The notes under the pieces: model-generated
What the model was told of the DNA's origin: nothing
What the model saw: only the letters and a program-made list of their open reading frames with translations
Database searches by the model: none
Position numbers and translations under genes: made by a program
Origin: Gammaproteobacteria bacterium
GTDB taxonomy: Bacteria > Pseudomonadota > Gammaproteobacteria > JAKDMP01
Direction: 5' to 3'
Length of the DNA: 64,000 nucleotides
Assembly (NCBI GenBank): GCA_050739575.1
Contig: JBOIBN010000003.1
Location: 608-64,607 of the forward strand
Shown: piece by piece, positions 25,549 through 43,573 of the stretch
How positions within the stretch are numbered: the stretch's first letter is position 1
Layout: each line of letters opens with the position of its first letter

Positions 25549-26343
25549 TCAGTTTGAGCCGCCGCCGTTCTGGTTCGGACCGATCATTTGTTCGTAGTTC
25601 GGTAACTGGTTGGGGTTGTAGTTCGGCAGGTTCTTGCGGACGGTTTCGTCGCGGTTCTGGAAGTAGGCGTTGCGCATGAAGGCGTAGGGATCGTAGGCCT
25701 GCTCCAGCAATTGATCGAGATTCAGGAATTGCGCGCGGAGCTGAATTGCACCGATGGCGTAGATAAGGTTGCGCGTCCGTGGTTTCCAGCCGGTCCAGAA
25801 GAAGGCCGAGCCGAAGTGATCCACGTAGAGGCCGAAAGCGTCGCGGACATCGCTCGGCCCGAGCAGCGGGATTTGCAGGTACGGCCCGCTCGGCACGCCC
25901 CAGCGCGCAAGCGTGATGCCGAAGTCCTCGCTGTGCGGCGGCATGCCCCAGTCCGAGGCGGGATCGAAGAAACCCGCGAAACCCACCGTCGAGTTGGCGA
26001 AAAAGCGTCCGGTATCGCGCACCGCATCCAGCGGCTTGAGCTGCAGCAGATCGTTGATGACGGTGACCGGCAGGCCGAGATTGCTGAAGAAATTGCCGAT
26101 GCCGGTTTGCACCGGTTTCGGAGTGATCTTCACATAACCCTTGGCCGCAGGTTTGAGCACGGCCGAATCCACCAGATTATTGAAACGGTACACCTCTCGG
26201 TTGGCGGGCGCCAGCGGGTCGCGCTTCTGGGGCGGCACGTTGCCAGGGTTGCCCGGCTTCGTCACACATCCGCAAAGTAGCGTTGTGAAAACCAGCGCGC
26301 AGACGGCGACGGGCCGGAGCAAGCGGTTGTGCCCACGGTTCAT
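25549..26343 (-). CDS. mlaA: outer-membrane lipoprotein MlaA (VacJ)
   Basis: Lipobox LLCGC and VacJ-family similarity (REVYRFNN, GLYVDHFGSAFFWTG). Start ATG 26341-26343 lies 1 nt after the upstream sulfotransferase stop codon (26338-26340). Confidence 0.85.
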   Translation of the reverse strand: MNRGHNRLLRPVAVCALVFTTLLCGCVTKPGNPGNVPPQKRDPLAPANREVYRFNNLVDSAVLKPAAKGYVKITPKPVQTGIGNFFSNLGLPVTVINDLLQLKPLDAVRDTGRFFANSTVGFAGFFDPASDWGMPPHSEDFGITLARWGVPSGPYLQIPLLGPSDVRDAFGLYVDHFGSAFFWTGWKPRTRNLIYAIGAIQLRAQFLNLDQLLEQAYDPYAFMRNAYFQNRDETVRKNLPNYNPNQLPNYEQMIGPNQNGGGSN

Positions 26344-28130
26344 TGCCGGCCGGTTCCTTCGAGTGCTTCGAGCAAGGGTAGCAGATGGGCTTCGAAGTGT
26401 CGCCACCTGCCGATCGAGCCGCGGTAGATCGGCTGACGTACCTGATGCAGACTGGCGGTGGCGACCGGCCGGCGGGATTCGTGAAACGCTAAGCAATCCT
26501 GGTGCCAATCGAGATCGATCTCCCCAAGCAGTCGACGTATTGTCGGCTCGGGAGTTCTGACAAGTCTTTCGTATTCTACCTCGACGATGCGTTCCGCACC
26601 GAGCAGCTTGCGCCAGTGGTCCATGAGAGTCTCATACTTGCGATAATAGGCGCCGAGGTCGCGCAGCTCCGCAGGCAGGCCGCGTCCGGCAAGCGCCGTC
26701 GTGTAACAGGATATACAAGTATCTCGTGCATCCCTGCGCACATGAACGACCGCAGCATCGGGGAAGCAGAGCGCAATGAGGCCGAGCAGGAAAAAATTGA
26801 TCGGCAGCTTGTCCGTGATCCGCTTGCGTCCAGCGCTGGCCCGCTCCAGGAAGCTTTGCCAATCCGCCGTCAGACGGGCGAGCGTTGGATCGTCTGCGTG
26901 GGCGAGCCAGGCCGGCACTTCCGCGTCCGGCAAACTTCCTGTGTTCCGGCGCAACCAAGTCGTCAGGAACTGCATTTCGCCCCCGGTCGTGACCTCCGGA
27001 TGCGCGCCCACAATGGCCTCAATCAGGGTCGTGCCCGAGCGCGGCATGCCGACGATAAAGATCGGGCGCAAATCGGCCGTATGCGAGAACGGAGGGCGGC
27101 GGACAAAATCGGCATTCAGGTATTTACGCACGTTATCGAAGTAACGCGCCTCCTCGCCGTAGTCGAGCGAGAAAACCCGGGCGCGGCGCCGATTCGCCTC
27201 GGTGCAGGCCGCAAAGGCGTCATCGTAGCGGCCGAGTTTCTCCAGCACCCGGCCGAGAGCGAGGTGCAGCACCCAGGCCTGAGGATCGGCGCCCGCACCG
27301 ACGACGGCTGTGCGCATCGCCTGCGCCGTCTCTTCGCGATGATCATCTGGTGCGAGTGTCAACTGATACCAGGCCGTGTAGCAGTGCGGATCGGCGTTTA
27401 CCGCCGCCTTCGCTTCGCGTCGCAGATTCGCAAAATCGCCGAACTGTCCCGCTGCCGCCGCCAGCCGGTGGTGTTCGTCGGCGGTTGTTCCACCGCAGGC
27501 GAGTGCCCGGCGAAAAGTCTCTGCGGCGGATGTCGTATCGGCCTGTCGGAGTTGCAGGGCGCAGATTTTAAACAACGCAGCGAGACGTGTCGCACCGGCG
27601 GAATTCTGCTGAACGCGTTCCCAGGCCTGCAGCGCAAGTTCGGGTGTTTCCGTCTGTTGCCGCAAATCGCCCAGCAGCAGCCACACCGTGTACTCGGTCG
27701 GGTGACGTGCGAGCCAAGATTCGAGCAGTGCGCACGCCGCCTCGTATTCATCGCCGGCCGCGAGATTGTTCGCAAGTTCGCGGATCGCAAGTGGCGAGTC
27801 CGGTTCGAGTGCAAGCAAGTGATCGAGCCGGATTTTCGCCGTCGCCATGCATCCCTGTTCGCCGAGCACCCGCGCATGATTGAGGAGAAAGTCGGGACGT
27901 GCGGGCGCGAGCCGTTCGGCGGCCTCGAGATGTTGGCGAGCCTCCTCCAGCCGTCCCCGTTGATGCAGCAGCAATCCGAAATAATGAAGCGCCTGCGGAT
28001 TCTGCGGCTCGCGCTCCAGCAGCGCCTTGTACCGTTGTTCCGCCTGCGCCAGCTCGTTGGCCCGGTGTGCCCGCAATGCCTCTTCGAGCGATGGTTGGGC
28101 ACGCGGATGGCGGGAGTGATGAGTCTTCAC
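26340..28130 (-). CDS. TPR-repeat / sulfotransferase fusion protein (subfamily A, copy 1)
   Basis: N-terminal TPR repeats. C-terminal sulfotransferase domain with 5'-PSB motif IFIVGMPRSGTT and an RDARD 3'-PB-like motif. Confidence 0.8.
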   Translation of the reverse strand: MKTHHSRHPRAQPSLEEALRAHRANELAQAEQRYKALLEREPQNPQALHYFGLLLHQRGRLEEARQHLEAAERLAPARPDFLLNHARVLGEQGCMATAKIRLDHLLALEPDSPLAIRELANNLAAGDEYEAACALLESWLARHPTEYTVWLLLGDLRQQTETPELALQAWERVQQNSAGATRLAALFKICALQLRQADTTSAAETFRRALACGGTTADEHHRLAAAAGQFGDFANLRREAKAAVNADPHCYTAWYQLTLAPDDHREETAQAMRTAVVGAGADPQAWVLHLALGRVLEKLGRYDDAFAACTEANRRRARVFSLDYGEEARYFDNVRKYLNADFVRRPPFSHTADLRPIFIVGMPRSGTTLIEAIVGAHPEVTTGGEMQFLTTWLRRNTGSLPDAEVPAWLAHADDPTLARLTADWQSFLERASAGRKRITDKLPINFFLLGLIALCFPDAAVVHVRRDARDTCISCYTTALAGRGLPAELRDLGAYYRKYETLMDHWRKLLGAERIVEVEYERLVRTPEPTIRRLLGEIDLDWHQDCLAFHESRRPVATASLHQVRQPIYRGSIGRWRHFEAHLLPLLEALEGTGRQ

Positions 28131-28176
28131 ATGTGCTCTACGGGCCGCGGAACGAGCTCGGCTGGCCCGGGCGGCA

Positions 28177-42671: not shown

Positions 42672-43325
42672 TCAGAGGGTTAACTCCAAGGCACCCGGAC
42701 GCACGTCGAAGGCGATGATCGCGCGCTCGCCTTCGCCATGGAAGGGGTGAACGTAGTGCAGGTAGAACGGCGGGAACAGCAGCAGCAGTCCTTCTTCCGG
42801 CACGATCCGCCGGGTGGTGTTGAAGCCGTGGTGCACCGCGATGGGATGCGGGTTGATGAATTCGATACAGCCCTCTGGCGGTTTGAGCGGTGGCAGGCGC
42901 ACGTAGTACACGCCGCTCGCCAGATTGGCTGCGGTGGGATGCATGTGCGGGCTTTGCCAGTCGCCGGAAGCGAGCAGGTTGGCCCAGCCCATCACGTTCG
43001 GGTCGAGCGCGCGGGCCTGGGGGCCGAAGACGTTCTGCAGATAATGGTGCACGGACGGCAGCACATAGCGGTCGCGCAGGGTGCGGATCTCCGGGCGGTT
43101 CACCTGAAAGAGGTTGGTCTGTTTCGAGGTTTGGTAACCGCCCTGGGTGGAGATGCCTGCACTTTTCGCAGCATTTTCTCCGCTGTCACGGTAGCGTGCT
43201 GCCATATCTTTGATCCACGCGAAAAGCTTTTCGTTCAGAGCGCCCATATCGGGATGGTGTCGCGCGAGCACGGTGATGGGAAAGTGCTGCTCGATGGTTT
43301 CCGTGTAGCGCTCGTTTTCGCTCAT
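42672..43325 (-). CDS. TIGR02466 / 2OG-FeII_Oxy_5-family putative oxygenase (copy 2)
   Basis: SPHMHPTAANLASGVYYV...LLLFPPFYLHYVHPF signature. Paralog of 38841..39545. Confidence 0.7.
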   Translation of the reverse strand: MSENERYTETIEQHFPITVLARHHPDMGALNEKLFAWIKDMAARYRDSGENAAKSAGISTQGGYQTSKQTNLFQVNRPEIRTLRDRYVLPSVHHYLQNVFGPQARALDPNVMGWANLLASGDWQSPHMHPTAANLASGVYYVRLPPLKPPEGCIEFINPHPIAVHHGFNTTRRIVPEEGLLLLFPPFYLHYVHPFHGEGERAIIAFDVRPGALELTL

Positions 43326-43486
43326 GCTGCTCTCCTCATAAGCCCCTTCAGTCGTCGAAAAACGTGGCGAGTGAAGGGAGTATTGGGTTGTCGGAGTGCA
43401 GGAACCGCAGTTACATGCAGGTAAATGCGGATTCCGGGCACCGCTCGCCTTTCAAGTCACCAGGCAAGGCGGTTTTTTCGACAAGC

Positions 43487-43573
43487 TGGTGCCGGGAGGG
43501 GGAATCGAACCCCCACGGTGTCGCCACCACCGGATTTTGAGTCCGGCGCGTCTACCAGTTCCGCCATCCCGGC
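43487..43573 (-). tRNA. tRNA-Leu (anticodon CAA), type II with long variable arm
   Basis: The reverse complement reads GCCGGGATGGCGGAACTGGTAGACGCGCCGGACTCAAAATCCGG-[variable arm]-GGGTTCGATTCCCCCTCCCGGCACCA. Acceptor and anticodon stems pair, and the T-loop is GGTTCGATTCC. Confidence 0.85.

Follow-up and report, generated by a model that had tools for sequence, protein, structure and literature searches.

What would a bacterium do with ten putative hydroxylases and sulfotransferases, several of them akin to protein-modifying enzymes, whose genes surround that of an outer-membrane receptor? The question is raised by a locus in a 64,000-nucleotide stretch (the window) of the 65-kb contig JBOIBN010000003.1 (positions 608 to 64,607; assembly GCA_050739575.1) from the metagenome-assembled genome of an uncultured member of the Gammaproteobacteria, in which 12 genes sit between mlaA and a tRNA-Leu(CAA) gene. 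Five of them code for sulfotransferase-fold proteins, one for an SseB-like protein, one for a TonB-dependent receptor (TBDR) and five for Fe(II)/2-oxoglutarate (2OG) oxygenases (Table 1). A first-pass annotation had set the same boundaries and counted ten genes; the boundaries were confirmed, and the two genes that had been overlooked are those coding for the SseB-like protein and for a 352-amino-acid protein. The profile searches that it proposed, carried out against Pfam and NCBIfam, reproduced all of its domain calls. We favour the reading, with a probability of about one half, that the locus codes for a soluble cytoplasmic line that would hydroxylate and then sulfate a polypeptide working with the receptor.

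Four of the sulfotransferase-fold proteins (ST1 to ST4) combine tetratricopeptide repeats (TPR) with a Sulfotransfer_3 domain, and their genes are read on the minus strand from position 34073 down to 26340 in the order ST4, ST3, SseB-like gene, ST2, ST1. The best solved relatives of these sulfotransferases are the tyrosylprotein sulfotransferases (TPST) 1 and 2 (E 2e-13), and at E < 1e-10 no other solved structure matches the sulfotransferase domain; hits to designed TPR proteins and OGT fall on the TPR arm. Alignment of ST1 with TPST1 spans the 5'-phosphosulfate-binding loop PRSGTTL, the AHPEV..GGE and DK-P segments and the 3'-phosphate-binding motif RRDxRDxxxS, with the catalytic Glu lying in GGE (CGEE in TPST) and the catalytic Lys in DK (NK in TPST). 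The motifs PRSGTTL, GGE, DK and RRDxRDxxxS are also readable in ST2, ST3 and ST4. Judging from their sequences, the four enzymes are not recent copies of one another (pairwise identity of 58.6% for ST2/ST3, 40% for ST1/ST4 and about 31% between the pairs).

The 352-amino-acid protein has no match in Pfam or NCBIfam. All top Foldseek matches of its AlphaFold2 model in the PDB are sulfotransferases, its distant homologues bear PF00685 or PF13469, and its loop for binding 3'-phosphoadenosine-5'-phosphosulfate (PAPS) is a conserved variant, FIFHTAFCCSTL, which reads HTAFCCSTL in the window. Its fold, its Foldseek matches and the domains of its homologues thus bring the number of sulfotransferase-fold proteins in the locus to five. 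Homologues with 30-36% identity occur as stand-alone genes among unrelated housekeeping genes in the Alphaproteobacteria Hyphococcus (L088), Oceanicaulis (L089) and Porphyrobacter (L090), suggesting that the family also functions apart from the cluster.

The five oxygenases belong to different families, and only the two of TIGR02466 type are detectably related to each other (26% identity). The catalytic half of the 407-amino-acid enzyme matches the human collagen prolyl 4-hydroxylase (C-P4H) alpha-2 subunit and the Chlamydomonas and B. anthracis prolyl 4-hydroxylases (P4H) in the PDB (E 7e-20 to 6e-16); its motifs HYD, QHAG and GEKW provide the HxD...H residues and the 2OG-binding Lys, while its N-terminus gives a weak match to the Sel1-type protein AlgK and its orthologues have Sel1 matches. 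The TPR-containing aspartyl/asparaginyl beta-hydroxylase (TPR-AspH) has a catalytic half similar to that of human ASPH (E 3e-29 by sequence, 4e-46 by profile), to which its THxxPH, HL.LVIP and LIFDDSFEHE motifs align; all 12 homologues compared share the THxxPH and FDDSFEHE positions. Both TIGR02466-type enzymes match the phage 2OG oxygenase family phrog_81 (E 5e-24 for the first and 7e-24 for the second), and the first also matches PDB entries 3bvc and 2rg4. The remaining oxygenase scores 117 bits against the FlmC family model NF052475, under its 240-bit cutoff, and its gene is the only enzyme gene on the plus strand. Its start is probably the GTG at 39649, which gives 183 amino acids, since its orthologues have 178-186 amino acids; they also lie in the same orientation relative to TPR-AspH. 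Altogether, six of the ten enzymes of the locus bear TPR or Sel1 arms.

Most of what the first-pass annotation had said of these proteins stood: four TPR-sulfotransferase fusions (E 3e-39 to 8e-42), a P4H homologue (E 7e-20 to collagen-type enzymes), a TPR-AspH built like eukaryotic AspH (PF05118, E 2e-48) and a 1002-amino-acid TBDR with plug and barrel on a divergent promoter. Its remark on the "protein-modifying" flavour of the set agrees with sulfotransferases closest to TPST, a eukaryote-like TPR + oxygenase AspH and a collagen-type P4H. Two of its calls had to be amended. Of the pair assigned to TIGR02466, the first exceeds the cutoff of that model (63.8 bits against 62.5), whereas the second, with 41 bits, falls below it and passes Pfam 2OG-FeII_Oxy_5; and the further 2OG oxygenase, whose domain was reproduced and proved FlmC-like, had been placed on the wrong strand.

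None of the ten enzymes has a signal peptide or an N-terminal signal-peptide-like segment, and their only strongly hydrophobic stretches lie within the conserved sulfotransferase core. ST1 to ST4 lack any N-terminal hydrophobic segment, unlike animal TPSTs, which have a type II membrane anchor and a lumenal location. Because signal peptides are missing and both PAPS and 2OG are cytoplasmic, the enzymes should be soluble and work in the cytoplasm.

The SseB-like protein is encoded in close association with the sulfotransferases: the GTG start of ST2 shares bases 29907-29910 with its stop codon, and its gene is flanked by two sulfotransferase genes in every examined locus that has it (L001, L003, L086, L022 and L115). 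Its AlphaFold2 model was unusable (predicted local distance difference test, pLDDT, of 45, with only five homologues retrieved), and a profile search against the PDB gave no match.

Recurrence of the gene set in other genomes was examined by a search seeded with TPR-AspH homologues in one genome per GTDB species, which returned at least 570 relatives of TPR-AspH. Among the best 80 of these loci, TPR-sulfotransferases were found in 32, an orthologue of the TBDR in 25, a TIGR02466 oxygenase in 17 and a Sel1-P4H in 16. Full sets occur in about 20 uncultured gammaproteobacterial (Lysobacterales-like) species. The recurring cassette contains a TBDR of 1000-1050 amino acids, two to four TPR-sulfotransferases with an SseB-like gene between two of them, a TPR-AspH, a sulfotransferase-fold protein of about 350 amino acids, a TIGR02466 oxygenase, an FlmC-like oxygenase and a Sel1-P4H. 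It was found in three settings, namely beside guaB/mlaA (L001), beside sucAB-lpd (L003, L085 and L087) and beside moa genes with mlaA (L086). With about 20 species and three genomic contexts sharing the set, its arrangement is far beyond chance; this is the outcome of the neighbourhood-conservation check proposed in the first-pass annotation. A minimal set, made up of TBDR, one or more sulfotransferases and TPR-AspH, is present in Rhodanobacter and Dyella, including the cultured R. ginsengisoli KACC 11762 (L075). A TBDR-centred comparison in a metagenome sample added one full cluster, L115, the receptor of which is 47% identical to that of the window.

In the sucAB context, the two chemistries are joined in single proteins. 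L003 (12426-14264), L085 (12794-14617) and L087 (12809-14632) code for fusions of 607-612 amino acids, devoid of TPR, in which an AspH-type oxygenase domain is linked to a Sulfotransfer_3 domain. Such fusions argue that hydroxylation and sulfation are coupled and act on one and the same substrate. The TIGR02466 oxygenase is likewise found fused to a long N-terminal TPR region (L149, 7023-8594; L136, 3575-5107). TBDRs only 24-27% identical to that of the window (L136, L149, L153 and L160) adjoin TPR-AspH, TIGR02466 and sulfotransferase genes, and in L149 the genes for the TBDR, Sel1-P4H, TPR-AspH and TPR-TIGR02466 are co-directional and separated by short gaps. The cassette therefore pairs repeatedly with unrelated TBDR subfamilies.

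The TBDR gene is divergent from the sulfotransferase operon, and only the plug of the receptor matches solved structures. Alignments of 18 loci revealed a promoter and leader conserved in 17 of the 18 cluster-type loci, with a GCAACA-type box, a -35 element CTTGCA, an extended -10 element TGGTGCTAGGAT and a Shine-Dalgarno site. The box ahead of the Shine-Dalgarno site reads GTTCCAACTCTTAAA in the sucAB-context clade and AACCCTCTTAG in the window. A modest hairpin at 34378-34394 in the leader has one covarying pair (RNAalifold). No Rfam family matched the leader in the window or in six orthologous loci, and no riboswitch was found in the locus with Rfam. The leader may be an undescribed cis-regulatory leader or the site of a regulator.

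Table 1. Coordinates of the genes and other elements of the locus and of its two boundaries in the window.
Feature	Position	Strand	Basis and remarks
mlaA, boundary gene	25549-26343	-	Pfam MlaA E 3e-71; lipoprotein-like start MNRGHNRLL...LLCGC read from the open reading frame
ST1, TPR + TPST-like sulfotransferase, 596 aa	26340-28130	-	PF13469 E 8e-42
ST2, TPR-sulfotransferase, 577 aa	28177-29910	-	PF13469 E 3e-39
SseB-like accessory protein (putative), 154 aa	29907-30371	-	PF07179 E 2e-6
ST3, TPR-sulfotransferase, 590 aa	30462-32234	-	PF13469 E 7e-42
ST4, TPR-sulfotransferase, 611 aa, first gene of the operon	32238-34073	-	PF13469 E 8e-41
Conserved TBDR promoter and leader of about 110 nt	34316-34467	+	Alignments of 18 loci
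TBDR, 1002 aa	34468-37476	+	Plug + TonB_dep_Rec_b-barrel; signal peptide; TonB-box-like LSNIVVTGS
Strong hairpin resembling an intrinsic terminator, after the TBDR gene	37503-37530	+	10-bp stem with 9 GC pairs, then a T-run
Sel1/TPR-like N-terminus + collagen-type P4H domain, 407 aa, start codon uncertain	37718-38941	-	PF13640 (2OG-FeII_Oxy_3)
First TIGR02466 / 2OG-FeII_Oxy_5 oxygenase, about 234 aa from ATG 39545	38841-39545	-	PF13759 E 1e-19; open reading frame 38841-39620
FlmC-like 2OG-Fe(II) oxygenase, about 183 aa	39649-40200	+	PF13640; NF052475 117 bits
TPR + aspartyl/asparaginyl beta-hydroxylase (TPR-AspH), 462 aa	40160-41548	-	PF05118 E 2e-48; TPR matches
Divergent sulfotransferase-fold protein, 352 aa	41605-42663	-	AlphaFold2 pLDDT 90.7; Foldseek PDB
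Second TIGR02466-like oxygenase, 217 aa	42672-43325	-	PF13759 (2OG-FeII_Oxy_5) E 6e-14
tRNA-Leu(CAA), boundary	43487-43573	-	ARAGORN; Rfam tRNA

How these proteins might work together can be outlined as follows. The five Fe(II)/2OG oxygenases would hydroxylate side chains, Pro and Asp/Asn being the best-predicted targets, and the four TPST-like sulfotransferases together with the fifth, divergent one would use PAPS to sulfate tyrosines, the newly made hydroxyls or both. The TPR/Sel1 arms would hold an extended substrate or gather the enzymes on it, and the SseB-like protein, translationally coupled to one sulfotransferase, would act as an accessory. A polyanionic product would then leave the cytoplasm via housekeeping routes and act at the outer membrane, either as a ligand recaptured by the TBDR or, less likely, as the TBDR polypeptide itself. 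We infer both the substrate class and the order of the steps, and likewise the part played by the TBDR as a functional partner, in the simplest case that of receptor for the polyanionic product once it is released. A polypeptide is the most likely substrate because the nearest relatives of the enzymes, TPST, ASPH and C-P4H, modify proteins, and because of the TPR/Sel1 arms, the hydroxylase-sulfotransferase fusions and the lack of a scaffold-forming enzyme. We accordingly favour protein or peptide modification, one of three hypotheses put forward in the first-pass annotation.

Several observations weigh against this reading. The resemblance to TPST is modest (about 53 bits), TPR repeats can serve to bring enzymes together and not to bind a substrate, and AspH-family enzymes also hydroxylate lipids, the OlsC model giving 98.5 bits with TPR-AspH. 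One version of the cluster, L022, has no TBDR within 10 kb, and no genes for these enzymes lie near the closest out-group TBDRs (30-37% identity). Only one of 50 tyrosines is conserved in an alignment of 24 TBDRs from these loci, so fixed sulfation sites on the receptor are not favoured. We found no substrate gene: screens for conserved small open reading frames (all-frame clustering of frames of 18-140 amino acids in 25 loci, which is crude for high-GC DNA) returned only alternate-frame shadows of large genes, and the gene calls of five loci (L001, L003, L085, L086 and L087) contain no precursor gene. Nor was a leader peptidase or exporter, normal for a secreted peptide that is made on ribosomes and modified after translation (RiPP), found in the window and five annotated orthologous loci (hereafter the annotated set). 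No gene for an EGF-like protein with the AspH substrate motif C-x-D/N-x4-F/Y-x-C is present in the locus. The annotated set is also devoid of non-ribosomal peptide synthetases (NRPS), polyketide synthases (PKS), NRPS-independent siderophore (NIS) synthetases and ATP-grasp ligases, as well as of inner-membrane transporters, regulators, glycosidases and lipid-synthesis genes, which bears out the earlier remark that NRPS/PKS, exporter and obvious precursor are missing.

The large intergenic gaps were searched as well; that of L003 contains nothing conserved, while L085 has an 800-bp gap between the TIGR02466 and TBDR genes (17134-17937) full of REP-like repeats, with recurring "WERRYSPR" translations in several frames. 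In the sucAB-context clade, TPR-AspH is followed by a gene for a 234-amino-acid protein with no Pfam match (L085, 11360-12064; L087, 11341-12045; L013, 11354-12064), the beginning of which, ...FIFVHLHKTGGQFV, reads as a P-loop-like motif, possibly of sulfotransferase type. Small secreted proteins of one family, about 160-186 amino acids long, accompany the distant TBDR/enzyme loci (L136, 11264-11824; L149, 868-1398; L153, about 18868-19347; L160, 4531-5007; also L146 and L164). They share a C...C pair near the N-terminus, and a faint VasI-like motif is all that Pfam recognizes in them; the family also occurs in two TBDR loci lacking the enzymes and has no counterpart in the window. Finally, tandem small secreted or lipoprotein-like proteins are encoded between the oxygenase and AspH/sulfotransferase genes in L149 (8669-8944 and 8977-9258) and L160 (3685-4065 and 4103-4516). 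The two pairs look alike by eye (C..G[ST]..C.T..Q.LR), BLAST found no link between them, and they are possible substrates in those lineages.

The exact composition of the locus was not found in the literature, although the first-pass description of it as undescribed needs qualification, because kindred neighbourhoods were predicted by Iyer et al. 2010 (PMC2938197). In the TBDR-linked neighbourhoods of that article, 2OG dioxygenases of several kinds, the cyanophage Syn9-gp52/TIGR02466 type among them, are sometimes joined by sulfotransferases, and hydroxylation followed by sulfation was predicted by comparative genomics only. With the class as described there, the window locus shares a TBDR beside several 2OG dioxygenase families, including Syn9-gp52 and beta-hydroxylase (AspH/P4H) types, and on gene content it can be counted as a member. 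It differs from the class so described in lacking tryptophan halogenase, SapC, JmjC, NRPS, collagen-like and tail-collar genes, and in adding four TPR-TPST-like sulfotransferases, a fifth sulfotransferase-fold protein, TPR-AspH, Sel1-P4H and the SseB-like protein. Full-text literature searches, which did not cover all journals, found no experimental study of TPR-sulfotransferase/TPR-AspH/TBDR loci.

Other substrates have to be weighed against a polypeptide ligand. One account, which we regard as unlikely, holds that free amino acids or a small unlinked scaffold are hydroxylated and sulfated into a siderophore-like metabolite that the TBDR re-imports once loaded with metal. A TBDR beside tailoring enzymes is indeed the classical metallophore signature, five oxygenases of different families are reminiscent of secondary-metabolite clusters, the TIGR02466 type is a cyanophage/metabolite-cluster family, and Iyer et al. 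2010 (PMC2938197) predicted such products for related TBDR-linked dioxygenase neighbourhoods. Yet no NRPS, NIS synthetase, ATP-grasp ligase or exporter was found in any locus whose gene content was examined, the conserved TBDR promoter contains no Fur box (best match 10/19, the background level), and TPR/Sel1 arms and protein-modifying closest homologues fit small substrates poorly. As a siderophore/metallophore locus proper, the region falls short, since of a scaffold synthetase, an exporter, a Fur box and a TBDR only the last was found. We consider it quite unlikely that the line acts on the receptor, or on some other envelope protein, in the cytoplasm before Sec export. In this account, the TPR-guided enzymes would add hydroxyl groups to Pro and Asp/Asn of the precursor, still unfolded and held by the SseB-like protein, and would O-sulfate it. 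This would explain why the cassettes have a TBDR but never a scaffold gene, exporter or inner-membrane transporter, and why unrelated TBDR subfamilies serve as their partners; apart from enzyme genes, moreover, the cassette conserves only those for the TBDR and the SseB-like protein, and the same account may perhaps extend to the long-unexplained halogenase/SapC/JmjC cassettes. It is opposed by the poorly conserved tyrosines, by L022 and by the out-group receptors that lack the enzymes. As a fixed-site substrate the TBDR was discarded: the 24 receptors retain a single Tyr beside the usual Gly/Pro/Arg/Cys conservation, and the loop C-x-N motifs of the window, compared by eye, are not retained in the L085 orthologue.

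The enzymes might instead process, in the cytoplasm, a compound that the TBDR imports, either to detoxify it or to break it down and scavenge its sulfur, in which case the sulfotransferases would run backwards on imported aryl or peptidyl sulfates. TBDR loci usually encode enzymes for the imported substrate, catabolic 2OG oxygenases such as TauD and AtsK exist, and one close relative, the TBDR of L092 (36% identity), shares its operon with S51 and M14 peptidases, a hint that receptors of this family may take up peptides. Against this stand a receptor accompanied by no inner-membrane transporter, regulator or hydrolase in the annotated set, an expensive, biosynthetic-looking complement of up to five PAPS-type sulfotransferases, and TPR and AspH-sulfotransferase fusions that suggest build-up and not breakdown. 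The hypothesis of an imported substrate raised in the first-pass annotation is therefore kept as a rival, an improbable one given that the locus lacks an inner-membrane transporter. The third of its hypotheses, in which an envelope lipid (lipid A, ornithine lipid or another) would be hydroxylated and sulfated in connection with Mla-dependent outer-membrane lipid homeostasis, has been weakened and appears very unlikely. LpxO and OlsC are AspH-family lipid hydroxylases, the sulfotransferase operon is coupled to mlaA in the window, L001 and L086, and mlaEDC with a probable mlaB lie next door. However, TPR-AspH scores far under the cutoffs of the two NCBIfam models (OlsC 98.5 bits against 450, LpxO 41.8 bits against 500), the enzymes lack N-terminal signal-peptide-like or other membrane segments, their strongly hydrophobic stretches being those of the conserved sulfotransferase core, and no lipid A or ornithine-lipid synthesis genes lie nearby. 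Moreover, mlaA does not accompany the cluster in the sucAB context, its adjacency is confined to one clade, and P4H, TPST-like enzymes and TPR arms have no lipid precedent. A line modifying a polypeptide that works with the receptor thus remains the explanation we favour.

How such a line relates to characterized systems can be seen by comparing partners. The animal enzymes TPST1/2, ASPH and collagen P4H share with it homologous catalytic domains with conserved cofactor motifs, the TPR + oxygenase layout of ASPH and a TPR-like substrate-binding arm as in C-P4H alpha. They differ in that the bacterial proteins are predicted to be soluble and cytoplasmic, with no signal anchor and outside any secretory lumen, and in that the bacterial genes stand together in operons beside an outer-membrane receptor with no EGF-like or collagen-like substrate encoded nearby. 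RaxST of Xanthomonas oryzae is a cytoplasmic, PAPS-dependent TPST-like sulfotransferase that acts on the ribosomal peptide RaxX, which is tyrosine-sulfated; it comes from a host of a related gammaproteobacterial order, and its locus has an adjacent precursor gene, raxX, and a peptidase-containing ABC exporter, raxAB, with no TPR fusion, oxygenases or TBDR. The Rax-specific precursor and exporter were not found in the window locus. Methanobactin operons, which direct the synthesis of a secreted and re-imported metal-binding RiPP, also encode a TBDR (MbnT) with tailoring enzymes, including in some a sulfotransferase (MbnS). Their precursor mbnA, MbnBC, exporter and periplasmic binding protein are all missing from the window locus, and they have no 2OG oxygenase set. 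LpxO and OlsC belong with TPR-AspH to the Asp_Arg_Hydrox (PF05118) superfamily; they have no TPR arms, LpxO is membrane-bound, and the window locus offers no lipid-synthesis context. Other classes were also considered. A carbohydrate-utilization (CUT) TBDR locus is not supported, as no glycoside hydrolase, inner-membrane transporter or regulator occurs in the window or the orthologous loci, and a RiPP cluster finds no support in the annotated set as regards leader peptidase and exporter. For anti-phage defence, PADLOC gave one match of a generic 2OG-domain model to the P4H-like protein and none for the sulfotransferases, AspH, SseB-like or 352-amino-acid proteins. Because the defining partner was sought in each case and not found, the window locus falls, on sequence grounds, outside the RaxST-RaxX, methanobactin, LpxO/OlsC, CUT-locus and defence-system families.

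At the mlaA boundary, the likely ATG of mlaA (26343-26341) shares bases with the stop codon of ST1 (ATGA, overlap 26340-26343), indicating that the sulfotransferase operon runs into mlaA, to which translation appears to be coupled; the link between the two proposed earlier is thereby borne out. The overlap is likewise present in L001, and sulfotransferase-mlaA coupling is also seen in L086. Expression of mlaA therefore probably depends in part on the sulfotransferase operon. Beyond the tRNA-Leu(CAA) gene lie guaB-guaA (matches to IMPDH and GMP synthase), and the flanks are otherwise of housekeeping type, with mlaEDC, a probable mlaB, fabI, lytic transglycosylases, pilT-like ATPases and pst genes. 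The window has about 63% GC, and the composition of the locus is continuous with its flanks. Despite the adjacent tRNA-Leu gene, a genomic island was rejected, as GC (0.61-0.68) is the same as in the flanks and the context is common to L001, L005 and L007. Elsewhere in the window, a 483-amino-acid open reading frame (20956-22407, minus strand) has coding-like codon-position GC and no Pfam match at E <= 1e-5.

The animal secretory pathway is where one usually expects tyrosine sulfation, Asp/Asn beta-hydroxylation and prolyl hydroxylation. Here, each of the three enzyme types has putatively soluble bacterial relatives, most with TPR/Sel1 arms, whose genes stand together, up to ten in a locus, and are tied to a TBDR. 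Such loci occur in many Gammaproteobacteria of soil and sediment and, in a reduced form, in other Proteobacteria. The system bears on a puzzle that dates back to at least 2010, namely why cytoplasmic tailoring enzymes cluster with TBDRs in the absence of a scaffold gene, and it can be tested, since a minimal version is carried by the cultured Rhodanobacter ginsengisoli. Identifying the substrate would bring to light either bacterial peptides or proteins of a new class, with heavy hydroxylation and sulfation, or new metallophore chemistry; should the receptor itself prove to be the substrate, it would be a bacterial outer-membrane receptor bearing modifications of the eukaryotic extracellular-matrix type. 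The locus could also inform the bacterial origin of eukaryotic TPST, AspH and P4H.

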